DNA of 32,000 bases from Ruminococcus albus 7 = DSM 20455 (GTDB taxonomy: Bacteria > Bacillota > Clostridia > Oscillospirales > Ruminococcaceae): NCBI RefSeq assembly GCF_000179635.2, contig NC_014833.1:450001-482000 (forward strand), given 5' to 3'. The notes under the pieces are model-generated. The model was given only the letters and a program-made list of their open reading frames with translations, was not told where the DNA came from and ran no database searches. Positions 70-31,394 of the stretch are shown here, in pieces (the first letter of the stretch is position 1; every line of letters begins with the position of its first letter). Position numbers and translations under genes: made by a program.

Positions 70-1098
70 ATGACAATATTTGTAACAGGCGGCGCGGGCT
101 TTATTGGCTCAAACTTCGTTTTCCATATGCTGGATACCTATCCTGATTATCGTATAGTATGTCTGGATAAACTGACCTATGCAGGCAATCTTTCCACACT
201 TGAACCCGTGATGAAGAACCCGAATTTCAGGTTCGTGAAGATAGATATCTGCGACAGAGAAGCTATATACAAGCTGTTTGAGGAAGAAAAGCCCGATATC
301 GTTGTGAATTTCGCGGCTGAATCTCACGTTGACCGTTCTATCGAGAACCCCGAGATATTCCTGCAGACCAACATTCTCGGCACACAGGTGCTGATGGACG
401 CTTGCAGAAAGTACGGCATACAGAGATATCATCAGGTATCCACCGATGAAGTTTACGGCGATCTGCCCCTTGACAGACCCGACCTGTTCTTCACCGAGGA
501 GACACCCATACACACTTCTTCACCCTATTCGTCTTCAAAGGCGGGTGCTGATCTGCTGGTTATGGCTTATCACAGAACTTACGGTCTGCCTGTGACTATT
601 TCCAGATGTTCCAACAACTACGGTCCCTATCACTTCCCCGAGAAGCTGATACCCCTGATGATAGCAAATGCACTGGCTGACAAGCCCCTGCCTGTATACG
701 GTGAGGGTCTGAATGTCCGCGACTGGCTGTACGTTGAGGATCACTGCCGCGCTATCGACCTGATAATCCACAAGGGAAAAGTCGGCGAAGTTTACAATGT
801 CGGCGGACACAACGAGATGAAGAACATCGACATAGTAAAGCTTATATGCAAGGAACTTGGCAAGCCCGAAAGCCTTATCATACACGTTGAGGACAGAAAG
901 GGTCACGATATGCGTTACGCTATCGACCCCACAAAGATACACAACGAACTGGGCTGGCTGCCCGAGACTAAGTTTGCGGACGGTATCAAGAAGACTATTG
1001 ACTGGTACCTGAACAACCGTGAATGGTGGGAAACAATAATAAGCGGAGAATATCAGAACTACTACGAGAAGATGTACGGTAATCGTGCGGAGGTCTGA
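70..1098 (+). CDS. rfbB: dTDP-glucose 4,6-dehydratase
   Basis: 342 aa. N-terminal Rossmann motif TGGAGFIGSNF, an STDEVYG motif and YSSSK (the YxxxK catalytic motif of extended SDRs). The overall sequence is typical of RmlB. AAGGAG RBS upstream. Confidence 0.95.
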   Translation: MTIFVTGGAGFIGSNFVFHMLDTYPDYRIVCLDKLTYAGNLSTLEPVMKNPNFRFVKIDICDREAIYKLFEEEKPDIVVNFAAESHVDRSIENPEIFLQTNILGTQVLMDACRKYGIQRYHQVSTDEVYGDLPLDRPDLFFTEETPIHTSSPYSSSKAGADLLVMAYHRTYGLPVTISRCSNNYGPYHFPEKLIPLMIANALADKPLPVYGEGLNVRDWLYVEDHCRAIDLIIHKGKVGEVYNVGGHNEMKNIDIVKLICKELGKPESLIIHVEDRKGHDMRYAIDPTKIHNELGWLPETKFADGIKKTIDWYLNNREWWETIISGEYQNYYEKMYGNRAEV

Positions 1099-1099
1099 G

Positions 1100-3023: not shown

Positions 3024-3039
3024 TCGGGTGGTCATATAA

Positions 3040-4104: not shown

Positions 4105-4105
4105 T

Positions 4106-5338
4106 ATGAAGATCGCAGTTGCGGGTACAGGATATGTGGGACTTTCGCTGGCGGTATTGCTGGCGCAGTATAATTCTGTTACCGCTGTTGACATCGTACC
4201 CGAAAAGGTGGACATGATAAACAGTAAAAAATCGCCCATTCAGGACGATTACATAGAGAAATATCTTGCCGAAAAAAAACTCGACCTCACTGCAACTCTT
4301 GACGGCGAGAGCGCATATAAGGACGCTGAATTTGTTATAATCGCAGCCCCCACCAACTACGACCCGAAGAAAAATTTCTTCGATTGCAGTGCGGTTGAAG
4401 CAGTTATCGGACTTGTACAGAAAGTCAATCCCGATGCGATAATGGTCATAAAATCCACCATACCTGTTGGATATACCAAGAGCGTGCGCGAGAAGTTCGG
4501 TACAAAAAACATAATTTTCAGCCCCGAGTTTCTGCGCGAAAGCAAGGCACTTTATGATAACCTCTATCCCAGCCGTATCATTGTCGGTACCGATATGGAG
4601 GATGAGCGTCTTGTAAAAGCAGCACATACCTTTGCTGCACTGCTGCAGCAGGGCGCAATAAAAGAGGATATCGACACTCTGTTTATGGGCTTCACCGAGG
4701 CTGAGGCTGTAAAGCTGTTCGCAAATACTTATCTTGCACTGAGAGTAAGCTATTTCAACGAGCTTGACACATACGCAGAGATGAAAGGTCTTGATACCCA
4801 GCAGATAATCAACGGTGTTTGTCTTGACCCTCGTATAGGTACGCATTATAATAATCCTTCCTTCGGCTACGGCGGATATTGTCTGCCCAAGGATACCAAG
4901 CAGCTGCTTGCGAATTATGCTGATGTTCCGCAGAACATGATGTCTGCTATAGTTGAATCCAACAGGACGAGAAAGGATTTCATCGCAGACAGAGTTCTCG
5001 AAAAGGCAGGATACTATTCGTCGAACAGTTCGTGGGATTCTACCAGTGAAAAGAATGTTGTTATAGGCGTTTATCGTCTGACAATGAAATCCAACAGTGA
5101 TAATTTCCGTCAGAGTTCCATACAGGGCGTTATGAAGCGTATCAAGGCTAAGGGTGCAACAGTTATAATCTACGAGCCCACCCTGAAGGACGGCGAAACA
5201 TTCTTCGGAAGTCAGGTCGTGAATGACCTTGAAAAATTCAAGGCTGAGTCTGCGGCTATCATCGCCAACAGATATGACAGCTGTCTTGATGATGTGCAGG
5301 AGAAGGTCTACACCCGTGACCTTTTCAGAAGAGATTGA
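4106..5338 (+). CDS. ugd: UDP-glucose 6-dehydrogenase
   Basis: [14 protein letters not shown] Rossmann start and the catalytic-Cys motif [10 protein letters not shown]. The true start is ATG 4106 with GGAGG upstream. The track's 4007 start is only an in-frame read-through extension overlapping the previous gene. Confidence 0.93.
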
Positions 5339-5470: not shown

Positions 5471-5547
5471 CAAGACGTTGGAAAATAAGGTGGGTGACAC
5501 CGCGACAGAATTAGGGTATATCCCGGATTCAGAAAGGTTGGGTTTTA

Positions 5548-13088: not shown

Positions 13089-14006
13089 TCAAAGCCATTT
13101 TTTCCTTTTGAAGAATATGAGGCTGAAAATTACTATAACTATACTGAGCGCGATAACGATAGGATAGGATATCTTATACTCAAGCTCGGGCATATATTTG
13201 AAGTTCATGCCGTACCAGCCTGCTATCAGTGTAAGCGGCATGAATATAGAGGTGATAACCGTGAGCAGAGTCATTATCCTGTTCTGCTTGATATCGAGTC
13301 TTGACTGATACAGGTCGCGTATCTGTATGGAATAATCGCGCAGAGAGGAGGTCATATCGTGCAGACGGGATATGCGCTGATTGAACAGGTGGAAATATCT
13401 TACATTATCCTTTTTGAAGAAGTCGTTCTCATTTTCCTCAAGTTCCTGTGCCAGATCCTGAAGCTGTTCGTAATGGATGCGAAGATCTCTGAGGTCACTG
13501 CGTATATGGTTGACCCTTGGCGTCGGATCAGCTTCTGAGCCTGAAAGTATATCCGATTCAATGGTATCAAGCTCCTTGTCATACTTTTCCAGCATGGCCT
13601 GATCACCGGTGACAAGTTGTTCCAGAAAATCGTATATGAATCTTTCAAGACTTGGCAGTGCCCATTTTTTAGTGCGTATGATACTTTGCAGGATCTTTTC
13701 GACCATACCGCTGTCATCAATGAATACTATACCCTTCTCATCCAGTGCGAAGGCGAAATTTGTATTTGTGCCTGAGAGGTTTCTGCGGTCAGGGACAGAG
13801 AAGGTACCTGTCAGTGAATCGTAGTTGACCTCGGCTTTGGTTGAATGGACAGCCGAAAGATCAATGTCCATCTCAATGCCCATATCGAAAGTATCCTTGA
13901 ACTCCATCCATTCTGCAGAAGTAAGTACAGCTACGTATTTAGCGCCCTGCTTGCCGCTGATGGTTTCCTCTGCCTTTTCAAGAGTGCTCTTAATATAGTA
14001 TAACAT
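13089..14006 (-). CDS. corA: CorA family magnesium/cobalt transporter
   Basis: 305 aa. Two C-terminal TM helices with the signature GWYGMNF (GMN motif) between them. GGAGG RBS. Confidence 0.9.
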   Translation of the reverse strand: MLYYIKSTLEKAEETISGKQGAKYVAVLTSAEWMEFKDTFDMGIEMDIDLSAVHSTKAEVNYDSLTGTFSVPDRRNLSGTNTNFAFALDEKGIVFIDDSGMVEKILQSIIRTKKWALPSLERFIYDFLEQLVTGDQAMLEKYDKELDTIESDILSGSEADPTPRVNHIRSDLRDLRIHYEQLQDLAQELEENENDFFKKDNVRYFHLFNQRISRLHDMTSSLRDYSIQIRDLYQSRLDIKQNRIMTLLTVITSIFMPLTLIAGWYGMNFKYMPELEYKISYPIVIALSIVIVIFSLIFFKRKKWL

Positions 14007-14064: not shown

Positions 14065-14094
14065 CAACAAAATAAAGCGGGAAATATAATTCAT

Positions 14095-14250
14095 GGTTAT
14101 CCCTTTAACACACCATTAAAAAGTGCTATATAACAATGAATCATCGTGTTGATGTTATCCTTCCCCCGCCGCAGGCGGGGGAAGGATAACCGCCGAGTAT
14201 TTCTAGTTCTTATATTACACCAAATTAATTGGTGTGTAAACGGGATAATC
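14095..14250. repeat. About 156-bp foldback (MITE/REP-like) palindromic element
   Basis: Imperfect 21-bp terminal inverted repeats, matching 18/21: GGTTATCCCTTTAACACACCA at 14095-14115 and TGGTGTGTAAACGGGATAATC at 14230-14250. A central perfect 17-bp stem with 3-nt loop lies at 14154-14190 (GTTATCCTTCCCCCGCC-gca-GGCGGGGGAAGGATAAC). The arms in between are partly complementary. Confidence 0.6.
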
Positions 14251-14414
14251 AGAATATAATTTAATTGCCTGCACAGCGAAGCGTATTTATAACGTAAAAC
14301 TGCGTTTAGATATTTGACCTTTGTATAATATCTGCAATAGTTTTCAAGAATGACGATTAAAATACAGCGCTATTAACGAAGTGAAAAAAACTCAAAAAAA
14401 ATCAAAAAAAACTA

Positions 14415-14499: not shown

Positions 14500-14572
14500 G
14501 GGGGTTTAGCTCAGCTGGGAGAGCATCTGCCTTACAAGCAGAGGGTCACAGGTTCGAGCCCTGTAGTCCCCA
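14500..14572 (+). tRNA. tRNA-Val (anticodon TAC)
   Basis: Hand-folded canonical cloverleaf: acceptor GGGGGTT/AGTCCCC, D arm GCTC-AGCTGGGA-GAGC, anticodon arm TCTGC-CTTACAA-GCAGA, T arm ACAGG-TTCGAGC-CCTGT. No encoded CCA. Confidence 0.93.
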
Positions 14573-14618
14573 TCAGTCAGATGTGTGCAGAACTTATCTG
14601 CACACGACTCTCTGACAC

Positions 14619-14692
14619 GGCCCGGTAGTTCAGTTGGTTAGAACGCCGCCCTGTCACGGCGGAGGTCGTGAGTTCGAGTCTCATCCGGGTCG
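14619..14692 (+). tRNA. tRNA-Asp (anticodon GTC)
   Basis: Acceptor GGCCCGG/CCGGGTC, anticodon arm CCGCC-CTGTCAC-GGCGG, T arm GTGAG-TTCGAGT-CTCAT, discriminator G. Confidence 0.93.
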
Positions 14693-14699
14693 CTTATAT

Positions 14700-14775
14700 G
14701 CTTCTGTAGCTCAGTCGGTAGAGCAGGGGACTGAAAATCCCCGTGTCGGTGGTTCAATTCCACTCGGAAGCACCA
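14700..14775 (+). tRNA. tRNA-Phe (anticodon GAA), CCA encoded
   Basis: Acceptor GCTTCTG/CGGAAGC, anticodon arm GGGGA-CTGAAAA-TCCCC, T arm GGTGG-TTCAATT-CCACT, discriminator A followed by CCA. Confidence 0.93.
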
Positions 14776-14778
14776 TTT

Positions 14779-14851
14779 GCGGATTTAGCTCATCTGGTAG
14801 AGCGCCACCTTGCCAAGGTGGAGGTAGCGAGTTCGAGCCTCGTAATCCGCT
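14779..14851 (+). tRNA. tRNA-Gly (anticodon GCC)
   Basis: Acceptor GCGGATT/AATCCGC, anticodon arm CCACC-TTGCCAA-GGTGG, T arm GCGAG-TTCGAGC-CTCGT, discriminator T. Confidence 0.93.
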
Positions 14852-14893
14852 CTCAGTATCCCGATGCTTAGGTATCGGGATACATTAATTAAT

Positions 14894-14967
14894 GCGGGTT
14901 TATTTCAACGCTAGAATACCTTTCTTCCTGAGAGGAGAAACTTGTTTAACTCAAGTGACCCGCTCCA
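14894..14967 (+). tRNA. Atypical tRNA-like gene with a Gly (UCC) anticodon, non-canonical D and T loops and encoded CCA
   Basis: Hand-folded cloverleaf. Acceptor GCGGGTT/GACCCGC, then T8 A9. D stem TTC/GAA with D loop AACGCTA (no GG). Anticodon stem CCTTT/AGAGG with loop CTTCCTG. Variable region AGAA. T stem ACTTG/CAAGT with T loop TTTAACT. Discriminator T, then CCA. Flanked by hairpins at 14856-14883 and 14971-14993. Not validated with a covariance model. Confidence 0.6.
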
Positions 14968-14970
14968 CTG

Positions 14971-14998
14971 AATGCCGATAGTTTATCGGCATTTTTTA
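14971..14998 (+). terminator. Terminator-like hairpin plus T-tract inside the tRNA cluster
   Basis: AATGCCGATA / TATCGGCATT stem followed by TTTTT, ending only 4 nt before tRNA-Gly(CCC). It may act as a partial terminator or a processing/stability element. Confidence 0.5.
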
Positions 14999-15001
14999 TA
15001 T

Positions 15002-15074
15002 GCGGATTTAGCTCATCCGGTAGAGCGCCACCTTCCCAAGGTGGATGTGGCGAGTTCGAGTCTCGTAATCCGCT
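15002..15074 (+). tRNA. tRNA-Gly (anticodon CCC)
   Basis: Near-identical paralogue of the GCC gene: acceptor GCGGATT/AATCCGC, anticodon arm CCACC-TTCCCAA-GGTGG, T arm GCGAG-TTCGAGT-CTCGT, discriminator T. Confidence 0.92.
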
Positions 15075-19544: not shown

Positions 19545-20123
19545 TCATCGCGGCGGCTGAGCATATGAATGCTTTTTCAATGCCTGAGATATTGGCTTAT
19601 ACAGCATAAAACATATAGCTGCATTCAGTGCGCTTTTGATAAGGTTGAATGGCAGCAGGAGAGGCATTATCATGCCTATTACCTCGTCAATGGTGGTATG
19701 TGCATATATCGGTGTGATGAACAAATTCATCACCAGCATAACGGCAGTCATGCTGAACATGGCGGCGATAAGACCAATTACTGCGCCCTTGAAACTTTTG
19801 TTGTACTTGTATATCAGCGATGCTGTAACGGCAAATGCGGCGCTTCCGCCAAAATTCATAACCGCCCCGAGAAATCCTGTGTCGGACAGTGTTACCATCT
19901 CCAGCAGAGATTCTGCCAAGGCTACACCCAAAGCAGCCAATGGCCCGAAAACAAATCCTGCCATTGTGATGAACACGTCTTTGAATTCGAGGGTGAGGAA
20001 GCTGACTTTGAATCTGAAAACGAACAGACACAGATAACCAAGTGCGGTGAACATCGCCAGTATCGTCATTTCCTTGACATCCATTTTTTTGGAAGAGGAA
20101 GCACCCGCTGTTTTTGTACTCAT
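19545..20123 (-). CDS. ribU: ECF transporter S component, riboflavin-specific (RibU-like)
   Basis: 192 aa, about 6 TM helices, typical ECF S-component architecture. Substrate is assigned from the FMN riboswitch directly upstream. Confidence 0.8.
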   Translation of the reverse strand: MSTKTAGASSSKKMDVKEMTILAMFTALGYLCLFVFRFKVSFLTLEFKDVFITMAGFVFGPLAALGVALAESLLEMVTLSDTGFLGAVMNFGGSAAFAVTASLIYKYNKSFKGAVIGLIAAMFSMTAVMLVMNLFITPIYAHTTIDEVIGMIMPLLLPFNLIKSALNAAICFMLYKPISQALKKHSYAQPPR

Positions 20124-20194: not shown

Positions 20195-20209
20195 GATTTT
20201 TATGATGTC

Positions 20210-20349
20210 GTTTCTTTCATCCGGACTATACCGTCGGTACGGGTTTCTCACCCGTTCGGCGCCGGGCACACTGGCGAGGCGTTCGAGGACTTACAGCATA
20301 ACAGAAACTGCTGCTCACCTCCGGTGTGGACTTTCACCACCCCTGAAAC
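20210..20349 (-). promoter_or_regulatory. FMN riboswitch (RFN element)
   Basis: The minus strand reads GTTTCAGGGGTGGTGAAAGTCCACACCGGAGGT...GCCGAACGGGTGAGAAACCCGTACCGACGGTATAGTCCGGATGAAAGAAAC. This matches the conserved RFN cores (GGTGAAA-TCC, ACCGG-GGT, CCGACGGTATAGTCCGGATG-AGA) with a closing P1 of GTTTC/GAAAC. Confidence 0.9.
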
Positions 20350-20388
20350 TAATTTATAGATATATGCCCTGTAACAGATCGCAGGATA

Positions 20389-23117: not shown

Positions 23118-23427
23118 ACATTATCAATGATCTGCAAGCTTAACTGTTCAAAAATCACATTCCTGTTTATTGACGGTACATATATATTAATGAAGGAATG
23201 ATGCGAACCATTTTTACTGATAACAGACTTGTTTTGTATTAAGATAATTTGAAATTTAAACTAAGATGTCATTACTCCGGGTTGGAGAAATGGATTATAA
23301 TTAAACTACCATATGTTATTATTCTTTGTTGAAACAATGAATAAATCACAAATGAAAATACCGGGTCACAGCATATATTATACTGTGACAGAACATAAAA
23401 TAAACTTATAACAACAGGGGCAATAAT

Positions 23428-24577
23428 ATGATCAGTTTTAATGTACCGCCGGTAGTCGGTAATGAACTCGGATTTATAGCTGAAGCAGTGGAAAATAGAC
23501 GTATTTCAGGTGATGGTGATTTCACGAAGCGCTGCAGCAGGCTTATGGAAAAACGCTTTGATGCGCGTCACGTACTGATAACTACGAGCTGCACCAGTGC
23601 TCTTGATATGGCTGCACTTTTATGCGGTTTCAATGAGGGCGATGAGGTCATTCTTCCAAGCTATACCTTGCTATACCTTTTCCAGTACCGCCAATGCTAT
23701 TATACTTGGCGGTGCAGTGCCTGTATTTGTAGATGTTCGTCCCGATACCATGAATATCGACGAAACGAAAATAGAAGCAGCAATAACTCCGCGTACAAAA
23801 GCCATAACTGTTATGCATTACGGCGGTGTAGCCTGCGAAATGGATACTATAATGGATATAGCGCACAGGTATGGTCTTATGGTCATAGAAGATGCAGCTC
23901 AGGGAGTCATGAGCACCTATAAGGGAAAATATCTCGGTACTATAGGAGATTTTGGGTGCTATTCGTTCCACGAGACTAAGAATTACTCTATGGGCGAGGG
24001 CGGGGCGCTGCTCATAAATAATGATGCTTATCTTGAAAGAGCGGAGATACTACGTGAGAAAGGAACGAATCGTTCCAAGTTTTACCGCGGTGAGATAGAC
24101 AAATACACATGGGTAGATTTCGGAGACAGCTATCTTCCAAGCGAGATAAATGCGGCGTTTCTCTAGGGACAGCTGCAGATGCTTGATGAGATAAACAATG
24201 ATCGTCTTACAACTCACCGCATATACTCAGAAGCCTTTGGACCTCTGGTAAAAAAGGGACTTATAGAGATACAGAACATCCCGGATGGCTGCTGTCATAA
24301 TGCTCATCTTTTCTATATAAAGCTGCGTGATCTTGAACATAGGACAGAGTTCATAAAATATATGAAGGAAGCAGGTATAACTACGGTATTCCACTATGTA
24401 CCGCTGCATTCTGCTCCCGCAGGTATACATTACGGCAGATTCAGCGGAAAAGATATTTATACGACAAAGAAAAGTGAACGTCTGGTCAGGCTTCCTATGT
24501 ATTACGGAATGACAGATGAGGACAGGCATACTGTAACGGAAACTGTCTTGTCTTTCTTTGTGATGACGGAGGAATGA
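23428..24577 (+). pseudogene. WecE/RffA-like dTDP-4-amino-4,6-dideoxyhexose (DegT/DnrJ/EryC1 family) aminotransferase, disrupted by a frameshift and an in-frame stop
   Basis: Three consecutive ORF fragments (23428-, 23597-24166, 24179-24577) together align collinearly with my recollection of E. coli WecE. Matching motifs: FNVPPVVGNEL, SCTSALDMAALL, DEVILPSYT, VFVDVRPDTMNIDET, HYGGVACEMDTIM, EDAAQGVMSTYKG, FHETKNY, REKGTNRS, DKYTWVD, NAHLFYIKL, FHYVPLH. A 10-bp tandem duplication of GCTATACCTT at 23660-23679 shifts the frame. TAG at 24164-24166 replaces a Trp codon. Removing the duplication gives about 379 codons. Confidence 0.85.
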
Positions 24578-24580
24578 CTA

Positions 24581-26992
24581 ATGCCTGACGAAAAGAACAT
24601 GATCAAACACCCTTTACTTAAATTGTTTTTTACTTCTTTTTTCTTGTTTCTTGTCGGTATTTCTCCCATACTCATCATTTCAAAGGGCGTGTATATGTGG
24701 ACAGGAGACTATAATGAACAGACTATTGTATTTACCGAATATATAAGCAAGCTGCTGCACAGCGGTCAGGGATTCCCGGCTTTTGACTGGAATTCCTTCC
24801 TGGGTATGGATTTTCTTACCTCTTATCATGATCACATTTTTTCTCCGTTTGACTGGCTGATGTACGCGGTCCCGACCGGTGTTATGCCTTACATACATAC
24901 TGTTGTTATGGCATTGAAAGTCGGATTATCAGCAGTAACAGCTTATATTTACTGCCGTCAGTATGTCAAAAAAGATCAGAGCGCCTATTTATGCGGTCTG
25001 CTGTATGCTTTTTCCGGTTTTCAGCTGTTTGATCTGGTATATCAGTTTTCGGAAAGATATCTTATGTTTCCGCTGATGTTGTATTGCTTTGATCAGTTGG
25101 TGATAAACAGAAAGCCGTTCTGTTTTGCTGCACTTCTTGGAATTTATTGTCTTATAAGTCCTGTTTTTGCTTGGATGACGTGTCTGTTCCTGTTGATATA
25201 TTACATCGTCAGGACCGCAACAAAGAGTTTCCCGAAACTTGATCTGAAACTGTTCATGCGTCTGGCAATTGAAACCGGCTGCGGTGTTCTTATGAGTGCT
25301 ATGTTGATGCTGCCTTTCTATAGCGTTCTTTCGGGAAATGCCCGTGCAGACGGAAAGATATTCAGCCACAGTCTGATAGCTTATGAGAATCCCGGAGTAG
25401 TGCTGTGTATAATAAGATCAATGTTTTTTCCGCCGGCTTTATGTGCTAACGACTGGTATTTCAGGAACAGTCAGTTGAGTATATCTCCGCCGCTGTTGTA
25501 TATACCCCTGTTCTTGATACTGGGTGTATACATGATATTCAAGAAGGAAAAACGTGCGTGGTATAGTGTACTGTTGAAAGTATGCATCATATTTGCTTGT
25601 GTACCTGTTCTCAACAGTTCTTTTGCAGTATTCAATAACAGGTATTATGCGCGCTGGCTTTTTATGCCTCTGCTTGTTATGATAATGATGACCGGCAGAT
25701 ATATAGATAATATCGAAGATGCAAAGCCGAAAAAAGAACTTCGGATATGTGCGGCGATCGTAGGATTTATGATCGTATACGGTGTATATACGGCTTGCTT
25801 TGAAAAGCCGCGGATTTACGGGAATAGAGCCTGGATCATCATGGCTGCTGTTTCACTGTTTGGAATGATCGTGCTGTATCTTCTTCATTATCCTATGGAT
25901 AAGGTAAGCTTTATCTCTGTAAGAAATATACGTAAGCTTGTGTGTGTGTGCTGTGTTTTGCCATTTTTTGGTACGGCATTCTTTCTTGCACAGGAAAACT
26001 ATTTTGAAAGTATCCCAAAACAGAAAGACATTATGTGGAATGGCTCTGAACCTGTAGTGATAGATGATGATGAATTCTTCAGGACTTCATACTGCATGAC
26101 AAACACTAAAAACAAATCAATGATCTGGGGGTATCCCACAATAGCAACTTTTAACTCCATGATAACCGGAGATACCAGCAGTTTCCTGGGAGAAACAGGA
26201 AATAATTTTAACAAGAAGATCAATCTGACATTTGATACTGATAATTATGCATTGTGCAGCTTCCTTTCGGTGAAATATGATCTTTATTGCAACCTTCTTC
26301 TTACGGGAGGTATCGAAGTTGAACCGGAAGATCTGAATAAGCATATAGAGGGTTTTGAACAGGATAAGGTAATAAATCGTTATGTATTATATAAAAACAA
26401 GGCGTTTATACCTATGGGTTTTACCTATGACAACTATATCAGGATAGATGCGCAGCCTCATAATAGCGATGAGGATAGCAGGAAGATGTATGATGACAAG
26501 GTTGACAGGCAAAAACTTTTTCTGAAGGCTATATGGCTCACGGATGAACAGATAGAGAAATATGGTGATATATTACAGGAATTGCCCGAAGATAAATATA
26601 ATGATGTATCTGTTGAAACCTATTATCAGGACTGCCGCGACCGTGCTGCCAGCGCTTGCTACGAATTTGTGCCTGATAAGACCGGATTCAATGCACGTAT
26701 CGACCTGCCGAAGGATAATCTTGTATTTTTCTCAGTACCTTACAATAGATATTTTACTGCATATATTGACGGCAGCCCCACAGAGATCGAACGCGTATTC
26801 AACGGACTTTCGGCGGTATATGTACCGCAGGGAGATCACAGTATCTCGTTCAGGTACAGGATACCAGGGTTCAAGTACGGAGTTATCATTTCGTCTGTGA
26901 GTGCAGGGATACTGCTTATATATACGGCTGTCGATCTGATACTTAAACGCAGGATACGCAGTAAGGACGGAACGGCTGTGAATGAAGCATAG
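24581..26992 (+). CDS. YfhO-family GT-C membrane glycosyltransferase
   Basis: 803 aa. About 12-14 N-terminal TM helices, a large extracytoplasmic C-terminal domain and a final TM helix plus basic tail. This is the architecture of YfhO/GtlB-type lipid-linked sugar transferases. GGAGG RBS 8 nt upstream. Starts 4 nt after the pseudogene stop. Confidence 0.8.
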   Translation: MPDEKNMIKHPLLKLFFTSFFLFLVGISPILIISKGVYMWTGDYNEQTIVFTEYISKLLHSGQGFPAFDWNSFLGMDFLTSYHDHIFSPFDWLMYAVPTGVMPYIHTVVMALKVGLSAVTAYIYCRQYVKKDQSAYLCGLLYAFSGFQLFDLVYQFSERYLMFPLMLYCFDQLVINRKPFCFAALLGIYCLISPVFAWMTCLFLLIYYIVRTATKSFPKLDLKLFMRLAIETGCGVLMSAMLMLPFYSVLSGNARADGKIFSHSLIAYENPGVVLCIIRSMFFPPALCANDWYFRNSQLSISPPLLYIPLFLILGVYMIFKKEKRAWYSVLLKVCIIFACVPVLNSSFAVFNNRYYARWLFMPLLVMIMMTGRYIDNIEDAKPKKELRICAAIVGFMIVYGVYTACFEKPRIYGNRAWIIMAAVSLFGMIVLYLLHYPMDKVSFISVRNIRKLVCVCCVLPFFGTAFFLAQENYFESIPKQKDIMWNGSEPVVIDDDEFFRTSYCMTNTKNKSMIWGYPTIATFNSMITGDTSSFLGETGNNFNKKINLTFDTDNYALCSFLSVKYDLYCNLLLTGGIEVEPEDLNKHIEGFEQDKVINRYVLYKNKAFIPMGFTYDNYIRIDAQPHNSDEDSRKMYDDKVDRQKLFLKAIWLTDEQIEKYGDILQELPEDKYNDVSVETYYQDCRDRAASACYEFVPDKTGFNARIDLPKDNLVFFSVPYNRYFTAYIDGSPTEIERVFNGLSAVYVPQGDHSISFRYRIPGFKYGVIISSVSAGILLIYTAVDLILKRRIRSKDGTAVNEA

Positions 26993-27005
26993 TGAGGCGT
27001 AATAT

Positions 27006-27371
27006 ATGAAAGGATCCGATAAAAAATACTTTCTTCTTATGCATCTGATCGTGTTGGTGATGTCGTTCGGCGGGGTGTTTTCAAAAAAGGCTGCTGCAGA
27101 AAAGTTCTTGTCTTTGAAATGGATCGTCCTGTACGGAGCTCTGCTGCTGGTGCTTATGGTATATGCTGTGTTCTGGCAGCAGATATTAAAACACTTGAAA
27201 CTAAGTACTGCTTATGCCTGCAGATCGGTCACGGTCGTATGGGGAATGGTGTGGGGCATACTGTTCTTCAACGAACAGCTCACTGCCAAGCAGATCATCG
27301 GCGGCATGATAGTTATTGTCGGAGTGATATTTGTTTCGTCCGGAAAGGAGTATCATGACAAGGTTGACTAA
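27006..27371 (+). CDS. Small 4-TM DMT/SMR-like protein (EamA half-transporter, ArnE-like)
   Basis: 121 aa with four TM helices. C-terminal motif (GILFFNEQLTAKQIIGGMIVIVGVIFV) is typical of EamA/SMR-like domains. Confidence 0.75.
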   Translation: MKGSDKKYFLLMHLIVLVMSFGGVFSKKAAAEKFLSLKWIVLYGALLLVLMVYAVFWQQILKHLKLSTAYACRSVTVVWGMVWGILFFNEQLTAKQIIGGMIVIVGVIFVSSGKEYHDKVD

Positions 27372-27699
27372 ATATGCGCTTATTCTGGTGTTAAGTTCGC
27401 TGATATCGTCGTTTTCACAGATACTTTTGAAAAAATCGGCAGGAAAACAATACAGTTCAAAGCTGCGTGAGTATCTGAACATACCTGTGATGACCTCGTA
27501 TGGAGTGTTTTTTCTTTGTACACTGATCTCTATGTACGGACTGAAGGTCGTGCCGCTGTCCATGTCACCGCTGCTTGATGCTACGGGATATATTTTTGTT
27601 ACGATACTTAGTTTCCTGTTTTTTCGAGAGATACCTGAAAAAAAGCAAGTTTTCGGTCTTGGTCTGATACTGATCGGGATCATTGTATATGCGATATAG
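27355..27699 (+). CDS. Small 4-TM DMT/SMR-like protein (EamA half-transporter, ArnF-like partner)
   Basis: 114 aa from ATG 27355 (AAGGAG at 27345-27350), overlapping the upstream gene by 17 nt. Four TM helices with a C-terminal FFREIPEKKQVFGLGLILIGIIV motif. The paired arrangement resembles heterodimeric ArnE/ArnF. Confidence 0.72.
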   Translation: MTRLTKYALILVLSSLISSFSQILLKKSAGKQYSSKLREYLNIPVMTSYGVFFLCTLISMYGLKVVPLSMSPLLDATGYIFVTILSFLFFREIPEKKQVFGLGLILIGIIVYAI

Positions 27700-27731
27700 A
27701 GTTTATGAGTATGTAAAGGAATGATTATAGA

Positions 27732-28694
27732 ATGGATATATCGGTAGTGGTACCTGTATACGGCTGCCGCTCCGCACTGCCTGTGTTGTGTGAACGGCTG
27801 AACAACACGCTTTCTTCGATAGTGAATGAGTATGAGATCATACTTGTTGAGGATCACTGTCCGCAGGGTTCCTGGGAAAGCATAAAGGAACTGTGTGAAA
27901 ATGACAAGCGTATAAAGGGTATACATCTTTCACGTAATTTCGGACAGGCTAATGCGATCACAGCGGGTATTGATATATGTACGGGTGATTGGGTAGTCGT
28001 TATGGATTGTGATCTTCAAGATCCGCCGGAAGCGATCGTTGATCTTTATAAGAAAGCGCAGGAAGGGTATGATGTTGTATTTGCAAGGCGTATCCAAAGA
28101 AAGGATACTGCTGTCACACTTTTTCTATCAAGATCGTTCTATCGCGTGCTGAGCTATTTTACTGAGGAGGATATAGATCCTTCGATAGGTAATTTCAGTG
28201 TATCTCGCAGATCTGTTATTGAAAATTATTGCAGGATGAGAGAACAGAACCGTGCGTATCAGATGTTCATAAAGTGGCTCGGATTCAGACAGACTTCGAT
28301 AGATATCGAATGTGAAGAACGCTATGAGGGCAGATCGTCTTATAATATGCGGAAAAAGATACGGTTCGCAGTTTCTCTTATAACCACTCATTCCAATAAA
28401 CCTCTGAAGCTGTCTATTAAGCTGGGTTTCATTCTGTCATCTCTTGCTATGATATACATACTGGTGCTTATAATCCAGAAGATCATGGGACGTGACATAC
28501 TTGCCGGCTGGACGAGTATTATTGCAGCGGTAGTCATCATGGGTGGACTGATACTGATGATGCTGGGTATAGTAGGCATATATATCGGCAATATTTTCAA
28601 TGAGGTCAAGAACAGACCTATATATGTGATAAGTGAGGCTATCAATTGTGAAAACAGATATGGTGGGGATAGTAAGAAATGCAGCACAGATTAG
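27732..28694 (+). CDS. GT2 polyprenyl-phosphate glycosyltransferase (ArnC/GtrB/CsbB-like)
   Basis: 320 aa. A GT-A fold N-terminus (VVVPVYG, ILVEDHC, FGQANAITAG, DCDLQD as the DxD motif) plus two C-terminal TM helices. This is the signature layout of enzymes that load a sugar onto undecaprenyl phosphate. Confidence 0.85.
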   Translation: MDISVVVPVYGCRSALPVLCERLNNTLSSIVNEYEIILVEDHCPQGSWESIKELCENDKRIKGIHLSRNFGQANAITAGIDICTGDWVVVMDCDLQDPPEAIVDLYKKAQEGYDVVFARRIQRKDTAVTLFLSRSFYRVLSYFTEEDIDPSIGNFSVSRRSVIENYCRMREQNRAYQMFIKWLGFRQTSIDIECEERYEGRSSYNMRKKIRFAVSLITTHSNKPLKLSIKLGFILSSLAMIYILVLIIQKIMGRDILAGWTSIIAAVVIMGGLILMMLGIVGIYIGNIFNEVKNRPIYVISEAINCENRYGGDSKKCSTD

Positions 28695-29941
28695 TAATTA
28701 TCGGTTCTTTATACGAAAATGTTCAATTGGTCATAGAGGCAAAAAAGCGCGGTTATTATACGATAGTATGTGACGGTTATAAGAACGGACACGCGAAGAA
28801 TATAGCAGATAAGTATTATGATATTGATATACGTGATACGGAAAAAGTTGCTGAGATGTGTATCAGAGAAAAGGCTGATGGCATATTGGGATCATTTTCT
28901 GATCTTGTGTTTGAAAAAATAACTGAGATAGCACATAAAGCAGGTATTGAATGGTATGCTTCGGCAGATATGCTCAAATACTATAGGGATAAGAAACAGG
29001 CAAAGGATCTGCTGCGCTCTCTGGGTGTGAGCGTTCCGGAAAACAGGATCATAAACAAGGATTTTTCCGATGAGGATATCAAAGGACTGAGTTTTCCTCT
29101 TGTGGTAAAGCCCTCGAATGCATGGGGCTCAAAGGGGATATATGTGGTAAACAACAGCGAAGAACTTCGGCTGTATGCAGAAAAGTCGGCAGAGATCTCA
29201 CATTCAGAAAAGGTGTTGGTCGAGGAATACAGCAAGGGAGGAGAATACAATATCACCTCGTTTGTAGCGGAAGGAAAGGTCTATGTTATCAGCTGCGGAG
29301 ACCGTGAGAAGACCAGATGTGAAGATAAGTCCATACCAAGACTGAGCCGTATTTTTTACAATACCTCACGGCATGATGACATAATTGAAGCAGCAAGGGT
29401 GACGCTCCAGAAATTTGCAGATGCTGTCGGTCAGAAGTACGGCGTGCTGTCAATGCAGTGCTTTTTCTACAAAGGTACTCTTACAGTATGTGAGATAGCA
29501 GGAAGGATACTTGCATTTGAAAATGATATCATAGGCGCTCATTCTGGGCTGAGTATAAATCAGCTGCTGCTGGATTGTGTTTATGATAAAGCTGCTTTGA
29601 AAGAGAAACTGATACAAAGCAGGGGATACGTTCCTTCAAAATTATATGCAAGACTATATTTTTTTGCGTATGACGGACATATCATAGAAAATATGGATAA
29701 TGTGTACGAGCTATGTAAATATGATAAGCTCACTGATGATATCGTTTTTTATAATGAGGGAGAAAAAATAGATAACAGAAGTACCAGATCATATTTTGCG
29801 ACTTTCTCATTCACAGCAGATTCCATCGCAGATATGGATCGTACTACGGATCATTTTGCAGAAAAAATGAAAGTGTTTTCAACGGACGGCAAGAACATTA
29901 TCTGTCCGATCAATCTGGATAATGACCGTGATTATAAATAA
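28679..29941 (+). CDS. ATP-grasp domain carboxylate-amine ligase, substrate unknown
   Basis: 420 aa. A pre-ATP-grasp Rossmann-like N-terminus, then a KDLLRSLGVSVPE...FPLVVKPSNAWGSKGIYVV...VLVEEY pattern typical of ATP-grasp enzymes. Overlaps the GT2 stop by 16 nt, suggesting translational coupling. Confidence 0.8.
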   Translation: MQHRLVIIGSLYENVQLVIEAKKRGYYTIVCDGYKNGHAKNIADKYYDIDIRDTEKVAEMCIREKADGILGSFSDLVFEKITEIAHKAGIEWYASADMLKYYRDKKQAKDLLRSLGVSVPENRIINKDFSDEDIKGLSFPLVVKPSNAWGSKGIYVVNNSEELRLYAEKSAEISHSEKVLVEEYSKGGEYNITSFVAEGKVYVISCGDREKTRCEDKSIPRLSRIFYNTSRHDDIIEAARVTLQKFADAVGQKYGVLSMQCFFYKGTLTVCEIAGRILAFENDIIGAHSGLSINQLLLDCVYDKAALKEKLIQSRGYVPSKLYARLYFFAYDGHIIENMDNVYELCKYDKLTDDIVFYNEGEKIDNRSTRSYFATFSFTADSIADMDRTTDHFAEKMKVFSTDGKNIICPINLDNDRDYK

Positions 29942-30074
29942 AAATTGGTTATCTCTTTGGCACACCGATCTGAAAGCAGATGTGATATTGAGTATTTATT
30001 GAGATCACTGTAAAAGGGCTGTATTGCTTGGTGCGTCAGGGTGATAAAATATAATATTGAAAAGAGGAAAGATA

Positions 30075-31301
30075 ATGAGCAGAGATATGTCATATTTAAA
30101 AGGGATGCCTGTAGCGGTCCTTGGAAGTGGTGCAGTAGGTAAAACGATAGCTGCAGATTGTAAGCTGGCAGGTTCGGAAGTCAGACTATGGGGCAGTGAG
30201 GAGTATTACGAGAGTTCAATGAAGATACTTCATAAATCGGGGATACTTCTTGACGGCATTCAACGCAACAGGGACGGGTTTGAGCGCTCCGGCAAAGCTT
30301 ATCTTGATGTAATCTCTACTGATATGGCAGAGGTTGTAAAGGGTGCTGGAATAATATGCGTTGCTACTACTTCCTGGAGACATGAAGCTATGTTCAGGCA
30401 GCTGATACCTTGTCTTGAAGACGGACAGGTCGTAATGGTATTTACAGATAACTGGGCAAGTCTTCTGCTAAGAAAGATGATGAGAGAAGCAGGCTGCACT
30501 AAAGACGTTATAGTTGGCGGATGGTCTTCTGCTCCTTATGGTACAAGAATTGAAAAGATCAATGATTACTGGCTGCCTCATGTTGGCGTAAAGTACAGAG
30601 CTATCAGCCTCAGAGGTGCTGCTATGCCTGCAAAGGACAGCGATGATTTTATTGAAGCATCCAGATATCTTCCGGCTATGGACAGTGTTACACAAGGTGA
30701 TGGTCCTGTTAAGGGTGATACGATCCTGGATATTGATTTTGCTAATGTAAATCCGGTTATCCATGTCCCGGCATCTGTTCTTGGTGTATCAAGTATGGAG
30801 AACTGGGTACTTGTCTACGGAAATGCACCGGAGACATATTCAATGTATTCTCACGGACTATGCCCTTCTATTTGTGAGGTACAGTATCAATTCTTCAATG
30901 AAGAGATAGCACTTGCAAAGAAACTTGGTGTCGGATGTCCGAGGTACAAGAAGCAGATGTTCTTCTCCAGAAGAAGTGTTCTGACGCAGGAGTATATGGG
31001 TCTTGATAAAGACGGAAACGATAATGTCGTTTTTCCGCTTGATCAGCCTTCCGATGAGGGAAATGTCGGTCCGAACAACATAAATCACAGATACCTGACA
31101 GAGGATATCCCGGTAAGCTGTAAGCTGTATCATGACCTTGGCGTTGCATACGGAGTTCCGACACCTGTCATTGACGCTATGATCATTCTGGGCGGTGCAT
31201 TCCATCAGACTAACTATTTTGTTGATGACAGATATACGCTCGATTATATCGGTATAGGCGGAATGAGCATTGAGGAGCTTAATGATTATCTGAGAAACTG
31301 A
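30075..31301 (+). CDS. NAD(P)-dependent octopine/nopaline (opine) dehydrogenase family protein
   Basis: N-terminal Rossmann VAVLGSGAVGKT. The C-terminal HRYLTEDIPVSCKLYHDLGVAYGVPTPVIDAMI matches the conserved RY-x-x-ED-x-P...G-V-x-TP motif I associate with the Octopine_DH domain. ATG 30075 (AGAGGA RBS) is preferred over the track's TTG 30057. Confidence 0.75.
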   Translation: MSRDMSYLKGMPVAVLGSGAVGKTIAADCKLAGSEVRLWGSEEYYESSMKILHKSGILLDGIQRNRDGFERSGKAYLDVISTDMAEVVKGAGIICVATTSWRHEAMFRQLIPCLEDGQVVMVFTDNWASLLLRKMMREAGCTKDVIVGGWSSAPYGTRIEKINDYWLPHVGVKYRAISLRGAAMPAKDSDDFIEASRYLPAMDSVTQGDGPVKGDTILDIDFANVNPVIHVPASVLGVSSMENWVLVYGNAPETYSMYSHGLCPSICEVQYQFFNEEIALAKKLGVGCPRYKKQMFFSRRSVLTQEYMGLDKDGNDNVVFPLDQPSDEGNVGPNNINHRYLTEDIPVSCKLYHDLGVAYGVPTPVIDAMIILGGAFHQTNYFVDDRYTLDYIGIGGMSIEELNDYLRN

Positions 31302-31361
31302 TGATCCTGCGTTCGATTTGAACGACAGTGTGCTGATAGTATAAAGTACGACAAAAACTGA

Positions 31362-31394
31362 AAGGCTGCGTGCTCGTAAGGAACACGCAGCCTT
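31362..31394. terminator. Bidirectional terminator between the opine-DH-like gene and the convergent peptidase gene
   Basis: AAGGCTGCGTG / CACGCAGCCTT 11-bp stem. The minus-strand side is followed by TTTCAGTTTTTG. Confidence 0.65.

Follow-up and report, generated by a model that had tools for sequence, protein, structure and literature searches.

In the Gram-positive three-component systems of the CsbB/GtcA/YfhO type, a GtrB-class GT2 supplies the C55-P-linked sugar that a YfhO-family GT-C transfers extracellularly (PMC7389260). These systems, found in B. subtilis, S. aureus and Listeria, and the GtlA/GtlB system use common UDP-sugars (GlcNAc, Gal) together with a GtrA-family flippase. The systems that add pentofuranose side chains to the O-antigen of Citrobacter youngae combine a synthase of the lipid-linked donor with a small 4-TM EmrE/ArnE-like flippase and a GT-C; three-component modules of this type are widespread and paired with varied GT-C families (PMC11127046). 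Their donor is made from PRPP via a phosphoribosyl synthase, with no amino sugar and no tailoring by a ligase or dehydrogenase. Protein O-glycosylation by the Pgf system of Streptococcus mutans involves PgfS, PgfM1, PgfE and PgfM2.

The Arn (Pmr) system of E. coli and Salmonella is made up of ArnB, ArnA, ArnC, ArnD, ArnE/F and ArnT. Its logic, as predicted from the genes, is repeated in a gene cassette of about 8 kb from the rumen bacterium Ruminococcus albus 7: a DegT-family 4-aminotransferase, a step that N-acylates the amino sugar nucleotide, a GT2 that loads undecaprenyl phosphate (Und-P), a pair of small 4-TM SMR-like flippase proteins and an extracytoplasmic GT-C. A literature search found no description of this gene combination. 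The cassette probably encodes a Und-P-linked, three-component-type extracytoplasmic glycosylation system for an N-acylated 4-amino-4,6-dideoxyhexose.

The window analysed is a 32,000-nt stretch of R. albus 7 DNA, in which the cassette occupies positions 23289..31365 (+ strand, 8.08 kb). It is 98.7% identical to a copy in R. albus SY3 (blastn of the window against locus L002, and boundary alignments). The genomic surroundings of the cassette differ between the two strains, and the SY3 copy is flanked at both ends by exact 15-bp direct repeats, GGGGCTGCAACAGCC. All cassette ORFs are on the + strand at the positions listed in the initial annotation, and profile searches of each ORF (Pfam/NCBIfam) returned the families that it had named: the aminotransferase, YfhO, the EamA pair, GT2, ATP-grasp and opine dehydrogenase (ODH). 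Its description of tightly packed genes up to the ATP-grasp gene also agrees with the spacing found, with gaps of 3, 13 and 32 nt and overlaps of 16 to 41 nt. The gap between the ATP-grasp and ODH genes is 115 to 133 nt, and in other strains a repeat element sits there. A palindrome flagged by a stem-loop scan in the operon leader, GTCACAGCATATATTATACTGTGAC (23365..23389, +), is kept in SY3 and in locus L003; possible roles are those of an operator or a leader hairpin. The stem-loop scan and boundary alignment place a stem-loop terminator (31362..31394, −), shared with the convergent pepP gene, at the right end of the cassette.

The R. albus 7 copy is damaged, as had previously only been implied. 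Its aminotransferase gene is a pseudogene (23428..24577, +) with two lesions. The first is a 10-bp tandem duplication, GCTATACCTT x2 (23660..23679, +), which causes a +1 frameshift; the extra 10 bases are missing from the aligned alleles L002, L003 and L005. The second is an in-frame nonsense codon, TGG>TAG, at Trp243 (24164..24166, +; G>A at 24165). Between them, the duplication and the TAG leave the window with no intact aminotransferase reading frame. In the remnant promoter (23288..23301, +), a −10 box comes after the junction that a 72-bp deletion has left between AATGGATT repeats. The SY3 and L003 promoters align as TTGACC-17 nt-TATAAT; in R. albus 7 the TATAAT box is kept (23296-23301), but the −35 box TTGACC has gone with the deletion, and a promoter scan of the window found no matching site at this position. 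The lesions are also seen in independent read sets and are therefore not assembly errors. With two aminotransferase lesions and a promoter deletion, the pathway is switched off in R. albus 7. Intact alleles are present in R. albus SY3 and in metagenomes, and against these alleles the six intact genes of the window have dN/dS values between 0.05 and 0.14, which shows that they are under purifying selection.

The genes of the cassette were expected to co-occur in other genomes, and they do. The survey was anchored on homologues of the ATP-grasp protein and covered 80 loci, 51 of which had at least 6 kb of sequence on both sides. Among these well-flanked loci, the EamA pair is present in 50, the GT2 in 49 and the aminotransferase in 42; all four, counting the ATP-grasp anchor, are found together in 41. 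Since the four-gene core is complete in 41/51 loci, the adjacency of the genes is not due to chance. The conserved core across Clostridia is the aminotransferase, the EamA pair, the GT2 and the ATP-grasp protein. Core loci span Blautia, Lachnospiraceae, Gemmiger, Lactonifactor, Allofournierella, Solobacterium and Eggerthellaceae, and relatives of the cassette are frequent in gut Clostridia.

The initial annotation identified the first gene as a WecE-type aminotransferase, and this identification stands on the intact SY3 allele. The 379-aa SY3 protein passes the WecE equivalog with 604.7 bits against a cutoff of 375 (NF008687), and a second WecE-model score is 601.2 against 434.85 (NF008687/TIGR02379 class). 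The three fragments left in the window match the same WecE models and DegT_DnrJ_EryC1. The protein is 31% identical to ArnB. Its substrate had been traced to rfbB, which lies outside the cassette at 70..1098 (+) and is confirmed as a dTDP-glucose 4,6-dehydratase by the TIGR01181 equivalog (497.4 bits against a cutoff of 365.1). The rfbB enzyme would supply dTDP-4-keto-6-deoxyglucose to the cassette pathway; rfbB homologues adjoin the module in 6/80 of the ATP-grasp-anchored loci.

The GT2 (27732..28694, +; Glycos_transf_2, PF00535, 99.5 bits) is a predicted polyprenyl-phosphate glycosyltransferase of the GtrB/ArnC class. It matches GtrB (5ekp) over its full length, TM helices included (residues 2-303, E 2.4e-60), and the ArnC structures 9bhc and 8vxh (9bhc over residues 3-307, E 2.3e-39). 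Identity to E. coli ArnC is 29%, and a DxD motif is present as DCD in VVMDCDLQDP. The two C-terminal TM helices attributed to it earlier appear as hydropathy peaks at 231-249 and 263-281. With 165.6 bits, it does not reach the cutoff of 529 of the ArnC equivalog NF007986. This GT2 is the protein that would put the amino sugar on undecaprenyl phosphate.

Two overlapping genes encode small EamA/SMR-like membrane proteins of 121 and 122 aa, each with 3 to 4 hydrophobic segments by hydropathy and each a putative flippase subunit: protein 1 at 27006..27371 (+; EamA, 37 bits) and protein 2 at 27331..27699 (+; EamA, 36 bits), the latter with an alternative ATG at 27355. They had been described as resembling the ArnE/ArnF flippase, a likeness that holds in part. 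The two are adjacent paralogues (hhalign between the two families, 96.9% probability), and both are homologous to ArnE by hhalign (94.9% for protein 1 and 87.9% for protein 2). Protein 2 has an invariant SQxLLK motif, the Gln of which is common to ArnE and ArnF. However, the top NCBIfam matches, ArnF for protein 1 (28.4 bits against a cutoff of 99) and ArnE for protein 2 (26.2 against 92), miss the cutoffs, and the proteins score similarly on the models of the drug-exporter SMRs EbrA/EbrB.

These scores, 26 to 28 bits and no better than those for EbrA/EbrB, would also suit a metabolite transporter, carrying for instance the opine or its precursors, with an unlinked protein flipping the lipid-linked sugar. 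Most members of the EamA and SMR families transport small molecules, and in one relative a TRAP transporter comes after the module. Such a role is nevertheless decidedly improbable. The central Glu of proton-coupled SMR exporters occurs in 0/126 members of the pair: within 8 residues on either side of the EmrE Glu14 column, Asp or Glu is found in 0/61 members for protein 1 and 0/65 for protein 2. In the lipid-flippase SMR subtype, a non-acidic residue replaces the central TM1 glutamate of the proton-coupled SMRs (PMC9574504), and the absence of this glutamate supports a resemblance of the pair to that subtype. Furthermore, the linkage of the pair to a polyprenyl-phosphate GT2 is near-universal (50/51 well-flanked loci). 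No GtrA-family protein is called in three annotated related loci, so the EamA pair is the sole flippase candidate there. Flipping of the Und-P-linked sugar is therefore the role that we infer for the pair in the cassette.

The YfhO-family GT-C (24581..26992, +) matches PF09586 with 224 bits against a cutoff of 28.5 over residues 36-657. By hydropathy it has 11 or more hydrophobic segments, and residues 461-762 form a long non-hydrophobic region. Sequence searches found no homologue of solved structure. Asp43, just past the first N-terminal hydrophobic segment, is invariant in 6 homologues that adjoin related modules (19 to 57% identity), and, by analogy with GT-C enzymes in general, it is the putative catalytic residue. 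Only a minority of loci have YfhO itself beside the module. The big membrane proteins next to related modules are YfhO, DUF2142, PMT_2 and DUF6057, all GT-C-type or candidate GT-C families, and this variety fits a fixed donor module with interchangeable transferases. In R. albus, the YfhO protein would carry out the extracytoplasmic sugar transfer.

The same machinery might instead modify protein: in such a Pgf-like O-glycosylation, the YfhO-type enzyme would add the sugar to Ser/Thr-rich stretches of surface proteins. Among the enzymes of the YfhO family, some glycosylate teichoic acids and others proteins, and the top NCBIfam matches are S. mutans PgfS for the GT2 and PgfM2/PgfM1 for the YfhO protein. 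All of these matches are far under cutoff, however (PgfS, 233.6 against 500 bits; PgfM2, 80.4 against 1500; PgfM1, 45.9 against 1400). In addition, the modules of several relatives lie inside polysaccharide loci with GT4s, Wzx, LicD and pyruvyl transferase, and the cassette encodes neither an acceptor gene nor a candidate acceptor protein. A protein target is thus unlikely, although it carries some weight.

The ATP-grasp gene (28679..29941, +) overlaps the GT2 gene by 16 nt and encodes a carboxylate-amine ligase similar to L-amino-acid ligases (ATP-grasp_4, PF13535, 37.6 bits against a cutoff of 27). It had been set down as an extra tailoring enzyme. That view is overturned by the survey: the gene belongs to the recurrent four-gene set found in 41/51 loci and is therefore a core member. 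Its conserved linkage, and the absence of any other acylase, make it the likely N-acylating enzyme of the 4-amino sugar, as predicted from sequence, and the sole such candidate in the cassette.

What the ligase adds may be judged from its fold. Profile searches match 4dim and the L-amino acid ligases 3vot (E 4e-19, ranked second) and 4wd3 (ranked ninth). The AlphaFold model (pLDDT 92.9) has the L-amino acid ligase 3vot as its top fold match (TM 0.78 to 0.83); YwfE/BacD and RizA rank near the top too. The formate-dependent N-formylase PurT is close as well (TM 0.70 to 0.74), and the PurT and PurK NCBIfam models match the protein. The enzyme could accordingly be PurT-like and join formate, acetate or another small acid to the 4-amine, without an amino acid; it would then correspond directly in function to the ArnA formyltransferase, and the ODH would be otherwise employed. 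Both the better fold match and the profile ranks point to amino acid ligases rather than PurT, and the adjacent ODH needs a primary amine to act on, and an amino acid supplies one. A PurT-like activity is for these reasons distinctly unlikely, and an amino-acid-derived acyl group is the preferred reading.

The last gene encodes an NAD(P)H opine dehydrogenase (30075..31301, +; Octopine_DH, PF02317, 102.6 bits against 30), a predicted accessory tailoring enzyme. The ORF runs from 30057 to 31301, and the true start is likely the ATG at 30075, which is preceded by a ribosome-binding site. The protein has an N-terminal Rossmann domain (NAD_Gly3P_dh_N, 31.5 bits), and residues 18-405 give a full-length match to the N-(1-carboxyethyl)-L-norvaline dehydrogenase CENDH (1bg6, E 7e-18). 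At E <= 0.01, a search of the PDB returned nothing beyond CENDH and octopine dehydrogenase. An NPVIHVPA motif is invariant in 27 homologues. Here the label of extra enzyme is apt, as the ODH is found in only 4/80 ATP-grasp-anchored loci. Seen from the other side, ODH homologues directly adjoin an ATP-grasp gene in 26/80 metagenome loci. Homologues with 66 to 70% identity lie directly beside ATP-grasp genes in a Fibrobacter isolate, in Lachnospiraceae and in metagenome glycan loci, the order in the Fibrobacter glycan locus being Wzx-DegT-ATP-grasp-ODH-Wzz-Wzy. In about 30/80 ODH loci the partner is an MmgE/PrpD-like gene, not ATP-grasp, and ODH homologues also serve outside glycan tailoring.

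This wider distribution raises another explanation, namely that the ATP-grasp protein and the ODH form a separate small-molecule pathway, producing a free opine, a dipeptide or an opine-type metallophore, and are mere neighbours of the glycosylation system. The amino sugar would then be left free or receive its acyl group from an enzyme whose gene lies elsewhere. Whatever its neighbours, the ODH family keeps 66 to 70% identity across phyla; in Faecalispora, the ODH adjoins a LysR regulator, a glutamate symporter and a PrpD-like gene, without glycan genes; and an intergenic gap lies upstream of the ODH. Against this, the ATP-grasp gene both overlaps the GT2 gene and joins the aminotransferase, GT2 and EamA pair in the conserved core, and ATP-grasp-ODH pairs recur within glycan loci. 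In addition, no nicotianamine-synthase-like (CntL) family is matched in the cassette, and the PDB matches of the ODH (E <= 0.01) are confined to CENDH and octopine dehydrogenase. We consider a separate pathway very unlikely and place both enzymes in the glycosylation system.

The proposed pathway begins with the WecE-type transaminase, which would aminate dTDP-4-keto-6-deoxyglucose to a dTDP-4-amino-4,6-dideoxyhexose, presumably of the Fuc4N or Qui4N type. The ATP-grasp ligase would then link the 4-amine of the sugar to an amino-acid-derived carboxylate as an amide, a step that would take the place of Arn-pathway formylation and of the acetylation seen when ECA is made. The ODH would turn the acyl group into an alanopine-like opine of the N-(1-carboxyalkyl)amino acid type. 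Most likely, the free opine would be made first and then ligated; alkylation of the aminoacyl sugar afterwards is less likely. The GtrB/ArnC-class GT2 would load the sugar on undecaprenyl phosphate, the two ArnE/F-like 4-TM proteins would flip the lipid-linked sugar, and the YfhO GT-C would move it to a putative envelope acceptor: a wall polysaccharide, a teichoic-acid-like polymer or a protein.

A cationic, Ara4N-type charge modification, as originally envisaged, is unlikely given the ATP-grasp and ODH enzymes. Their presence implies a 4-amine in amide linkage to an amino-acid- or opine-type acid, and therefore a zwitterionic or anionic substituent. No ArnD-type deformylase family is found among the operon products, and the acyl group is therefore probably retained. 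The product would thus be a 4-amino-4,6-dideoxyhexose acylated with an opine rather than a free cationic amine.

Compared with the Arn system, the cassette shares components and the Arn/Gtr-type lipid-carrier logic, and to this extent the earlier Arn-like reading stands; an intact system, an ATP-grasp enzyme that is merely extra and a cationic product do not. A set of Arn orthologues was considered and rejected. The ArnC, ArnE and ArnF equivalog cutoffs are missed, the gene products of 23428-31301 give no ArnA, ArnD or ArnT family match (Pfam/NCBIfam), and in alignments with E. coli ArnT no operon protein reaches a meaningful E-value. The predicted donor is a dTDP-6-deoxyhexose (WecE type), whereas Arn uses UDP-Ara4N; the predicted N-acylation is by an ATP-grasp enzyme instead of a formyltransferase; the GT-C is YfhO instead of ArnT (PMT_2); and the target is a Gram-positive envelope instead of lipid A.

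With the CsbB/GtcA/YfhO and GtlA/GtlB systems, the cassette has the GT2 and GT-C Pfam families in common. It differs from CsbB/GtcA/YfhO in its dedicated amino-sugar branch (WecE, ATP-grasp, ODH) and in the ArnE/F-like pair that replaces GtcA. The Pgf system supplies the closest NCBIfam models for the GT2 and YfhO proteins, but the cassette lacks the PgfE epimerase, has a single YfhO, and encodes an aminotransferase, an ATP-grasp protein, an ODH and EamA proteins besides.

For the predicted type of product, precedent comes from Gram-negative O-antigens that carry Qui4N with alanopine or an aminoacyl group (Providencia alcalifaciens O35; E. coli O123 and S. dysenteriae type 7). As the reference lists in PMC10609480 and PMC7685785 indicate, the O35 antigen has alanopine N-linked to 4-amino-4,6-dideoxyglucose, and the Qui4N of other O-antigens is substituted with Ala, Gly or Asp. 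PMC10609480 and PMC7685785 name no enzymes that would install the aminoacyl or opine group. In these polymers the substituted Qui4N sits inside the O-antigen repeat unit, whereas the sugar of the cassette would be delivered singly, via Und-P.

Profile searches identify every gene of the cassette on the + strand: a DegT/WecE aminotransferase in three fragments (23428–24577), a YfhO protein (24581–26992), two small EamA/SMR-like proteins, EamA1 (27006–27371) and EamA2 (27331–27699), a GT2 glycosyltransferase (27732–28694), an ATP-grasp protein (28679–29941) and an opine dehydrogenase (ODH; Octopine_DH, mechanical ORF 30057–31301). The true start of ODH is likely the ATG at 30075, which has a ribosome-binding site ahead of it. 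The YfhO protein is identical to ADU20987 of R. albus 7 (= ATCC 27210 / DSM 20455), the ATP-grasp protein to ADU20991 and ODH to ADU20992. All the ORFs named in the initial annotation were recovered on the + strand at matching coordinates, and every family assigned to them was upheld. That annotation had also pointed to rfbB (70–1098) as the source of a 4-keto sugar, and its product passes the equivalog cutoff for dTDP-glucose 4,6-dehydratase.

The rfbB gene belongs to a second glycan-related group (70–5338) that includes an Acyl_transf_3 membrane acyltransferase, rmlD, an NAD-dependent epimerase/dehydratase and a UDP-glucose 6-dehydrogenase. Some 18 kb of housekeeping genes lie between this group and the cassette. 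An Rfam scan of the whole window found nothing in the operon, and an FMN riboswitch and tRNAs elsewhere. The riboswitch (89.5 bits; 20205–20354, − strand) precedes the gene for an ECF-transporter S component (19545–20123, − strand), probably a riboflavin transporter, and five tRNA genes are clustered on the + strand at 14500–15074. A promoter/terminator scan was relied on for terminators only; promoter-like sites were not enriched in it (26 observed, 25.8 expected).

The locus is dead in R. albus 7, in which it carries three lesions. Two affect the aminotransferase: a 10-bp tandem duplication, with GCTATACCTT present twice (23660–23679), and a G>A change that converts Trp243 from TGG to TAG (24164–24166). 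R. albus SY3 and two metagenome contigs encode the intact 379-aa protein, the two contigs in the shared pfp…pepP context. The third lesion is in the promoter. Upstream of the intact alleles is a perfect sigma-70 promoter (TTGACC–17 nt–TATAAT), from which strain 7 has lost the −35 box by a 72-bp deletion between AATGGATT repeats, so that only the TATAAT is left (23296–23301). Since contigs from four other read sets are 100% identical to the window sequence, the lesions are a property of the strain and not assembly errors. The six genes downstream of the aminotransferase are intact. Compared with their SY3 and metagenome counterparts, they have dN/dS of 0.05 to 0.14; they are genuine genes, and the locus was inactivated recently. 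SY3, with an intact cassette, and strain 7, with its three lesions, make up a natural mutant pair.

Downstream of the −10 box and ahead of the start codon, the operon leader contains a conserved palindrome, GTCACAGCATATATTATACTGTGAC (23365–23389; 11-bp arms), which may serve as an operator or form a leader hairpin. Decay hits different genes of the same cassette in other Ruminococcus contigs: ODH is broken into two ORFs in two of them (L097 4577–5881; L098 2179–3483), and in one metagenome-assembled genome YfhO is in pieces of 474 and 319 to 344 aa.

The cassette is mobile. Positions 23289–31365 are 98.7% identical to the SY3 copy, but the strain 7 copy sits between pfp and pepP, while that of SY3 sits among transposase, WYL and integrase genes. 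The edges of the 8.1-kb SY3 cassette are exact 15-bp direct repeats, GGGGCTGCAACAGCC (L002, the SY3 locus, 5476–5490 and 13632–13646), each a palindromic hairpin in its own right. No recombinase gene is present within the cassette, and megablast of the cassette against plasmid and phage collections gave no match. Between corA and the tRNA cluster is a separate intergenic repeat element of about 180 bp (14082–14261), and copies with about 93% identity are inserted between the ATP-grasp and ODH genes of two R. albus-like contigs (L003 12205–12384; L005 8951–9130). It contains a perfect 17-bp hairpin (14154–14190) that is preserved through a compensatory change between copies.

The window proteins were searched against 80 genome loci fetched with the ATP-grasp profile, and co-occurrence was counted in the 51 of them that have 6 kb or more of flank on each side. 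The EamA pair is present in 50 of these 51, the GT2 in 49 and a WecE-type aminotransferase in 42, and all four components, ATP-grasp included, occur together in 41. The ATP-grasp gene is consequently part of the core of the module by its co-occurrence with the other three, and not the extra tailoring enzyme that it had been taken for. ODH is found in only 4 of the 80 loci, and a YfhO resembling that of the window in near relatives only. Elsewhere, the large membrane proteins beside the module are divergent YfhO, DUF2142, PMT_2-like or DUF6057 proteins, which fits a fixed donor module combined with interchangeable GT-C transferases. The hosts include Blautia, Lachnospiraceae, Gemmiger, Lactonifactor, Allofournierella, Solobacterium and Eggerthellaceae. 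In 51 of the 80 related loci, the GT2 and ATP-grasp genes flank a gene for a soluble protein (about 332 aa; e.g., L090 8958–9956); the protein has no match in Pfam, NCBIfam or PDB and no counterpart in the window.

The AlphaFold model of the ATP-grasp protein (pLDDT 92.9) is closest in fold to the L-amino acid ligase 3vot (TM 0.78 to 0.83), followed by YwfE/BacD and RizA, with PurT also high among the matches. It is the only candidate in the cassette for N-acylation of an amino sugar. Some metagenome loci have the order DegT–ATP-grasp–ATP-grasp–ODH, with two different ligases in tandem (L137 2165–7060; L147 27–4926), which hints at a two-step, dipeptide-like acylation.

On the WecE equivalog model (cutoff 375), the intact aminotransferase allele reaches 604.7 bits. 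Over its whole length, the GT2 aligns with polyprenyl-phosphate glycosyltransferases of known structure (GtrB, E = 2.4e-60; ArnC, E = 2e-39), and it has two hydrophobic helices at its C-terminus. By the curated cutoffs, orthology of the GT2 with ArnC or PgfS and membership of the cassette in the Pgf system are both rejected. YfhO has at least 11 hydrophobic segments and an Asp43, in the loop behind the first of them, that is invariant in divergent homologues; it matched no PDB sequence.

EamA1 and EamA2 are paralogues (hhalign 96.9%), and E. coli ArnE matches them with probabilities of 94.9% and 87.9%. According to a review of the SMR family, the lipid-flippase subtype is missing the central TM1 glutamate, and near that position all 61 EamA1-type and all 65 EamA2-type sequences are free of acidic residues. 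A Gln that is invariant in EamA2 is also shared by ArnE and ArnF. On the ArnE and ArnF models, the scores of the pair are under the curated cutoffs and comparable to those of drug exporters. The pair is best described as a putative flippase with an ArnE/F-like function, and orthology to ArnE or ArnF is rejected on those cutoffs. No GtrA-type flippase was called in three annotated related loci.

ODH belongs to a family with 931 homologues, with 66 to 70% identity among Firmicutes, Fibrobacter, Treponema and Synergistaceae, and N-(1-carboxyethyl)-L-norvaline dehydrogenase (CENDH) is its full-length structural relative. Its loci are varied: Wzx–DegT–ATP-grasp–ODH–Wzz–Wzy in Fibrobacter, and phosphoglycosyltransferase–epimerase–ATP-grasp–ODH–glycosyltransferases–Wzx in Lachnospiraceae. 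Among 80 metagenome loci, an ATP-grasp gene is directly beside ODH in 26, almost always upstream, and an MmgE/PrpD-like gene in about 30, often directly downstream, with or without ATP-grasp (L143 6791–10730 and many within L096–L175; likewise L093 8001–10602). Five have both, one of them a polysaccharide locus with a pyruvyl transferase, a GT4, a WecG-type transferase and a polysaccharide deacetylase. A Faecalispora locus has ODH and a PrpD-like gene without glycan genes, and a Faecalimonas ATP-grasp module (L089 11366–12721) has a 61%-identical PrpD-like gene, then a TRAP transporter, in place of ODH. This suggests that the ODH/PrpD/ATP-grasp triad acts on one acid class.

ODH could either produce a free opine for attachment by the ligase or alkylate an amino acid already on the sugar. 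The free opine is somewhat the more probable of the two, because conservation of ODH is high even where the ligases and aminotransferases that accompany it have diverged to 20 to 28% identity. A staphylopine-like metallophore was considered and rejected, as a CntL-like gene is absent from the cassette and ODH matches only CENDH and octopine dehydrogenase. Opine-bearing sugars are known chemically. Providencia alcalifaciens O35 has alanopine N-linked to 4-amino-4,6-dideoxyglucose, and other O-antigens have Qui4N bearing Ala, Gly or Asp. The O-antigen literature searched names no enzyme for the amino-acid or opine substituent step, and the ATP-grasp–ODH linkage provides concrete candidate genes for it.

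The best-supported pathway follows from the enzyme families observed; its substrates and acceptor are predictions. RfbB would make dTDP-4-keto-6-deoxyglucose, which would be transaminated by the WecE-type enzyme and N-acylated by the ATP-grasp ligase with an amino-acid or opine acid, its carboxyalkyl group coming from ODH. The GT2 would move the sugar onto undecaprenyl phosphate (Und-P), the EamA pair would flip the Und-P-linked sugar, and YfhO would transfer it to an envelope acceptor. It is possible, and proposed here tentatively, that the Clostridia module (WecE-type aminotransferase, L-amino-acid-ligase-like ATP-grasp, ArnC-like GT2 and ArnE/F-like pair) delivers aminoacylated 4-amino-4,6-dideoxyhexoses via Und-P to interchangeable GT-C proteins, and that the ATP-grasp–ODH pair, sometimes with an MmgE/PrpD-like partner, is the as yet unassigned genetic basis of opine-bearing glycan sugars (alanopine-type, carboxyethyl-lysine-type) in Gram-positive and Gram-negative bacteria. 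Clostridia of the human gut and the rumen, such as Blautia, Lachnospiraceae and Gemmiger, commonly carry the module, which probably shapes surface epitopes relevant to phage, immune and fibre interactions.

Three-component Und-P glycosylation is already known, and small ArnE/EmrE-like flippases have been proposed for the three-component systems of Gram-negative O-antigen modification. An amino-sugar branch tailored by an ATP-grasp ligase and ODH, with an ArnE/F-type pair in Firmicutes, was not found in the literature searched. Searches on ODH with ATP-grasp and glycosyltransferase, on YfhO with ATP-grasp, and on R. albus with YfhO or opine returned nothing relevant. The Arn-like interpretation of the initial annotation was largely right, except that the locus is dead, the ligase is core and the predicted product is an acylated sugar; the free cationic amine it foresaw is unlikely. 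The cassette shares its logic with the Arn pathway but differs in the sugar, the acylation chemistry, the GT-C family and the target, and it lacks a deformylase. With CsbB/GtcA/YfhO it has the GT2 and GT-C families in common, but it differs in having its own dedicated amino-sugar branch and another type of flippase.
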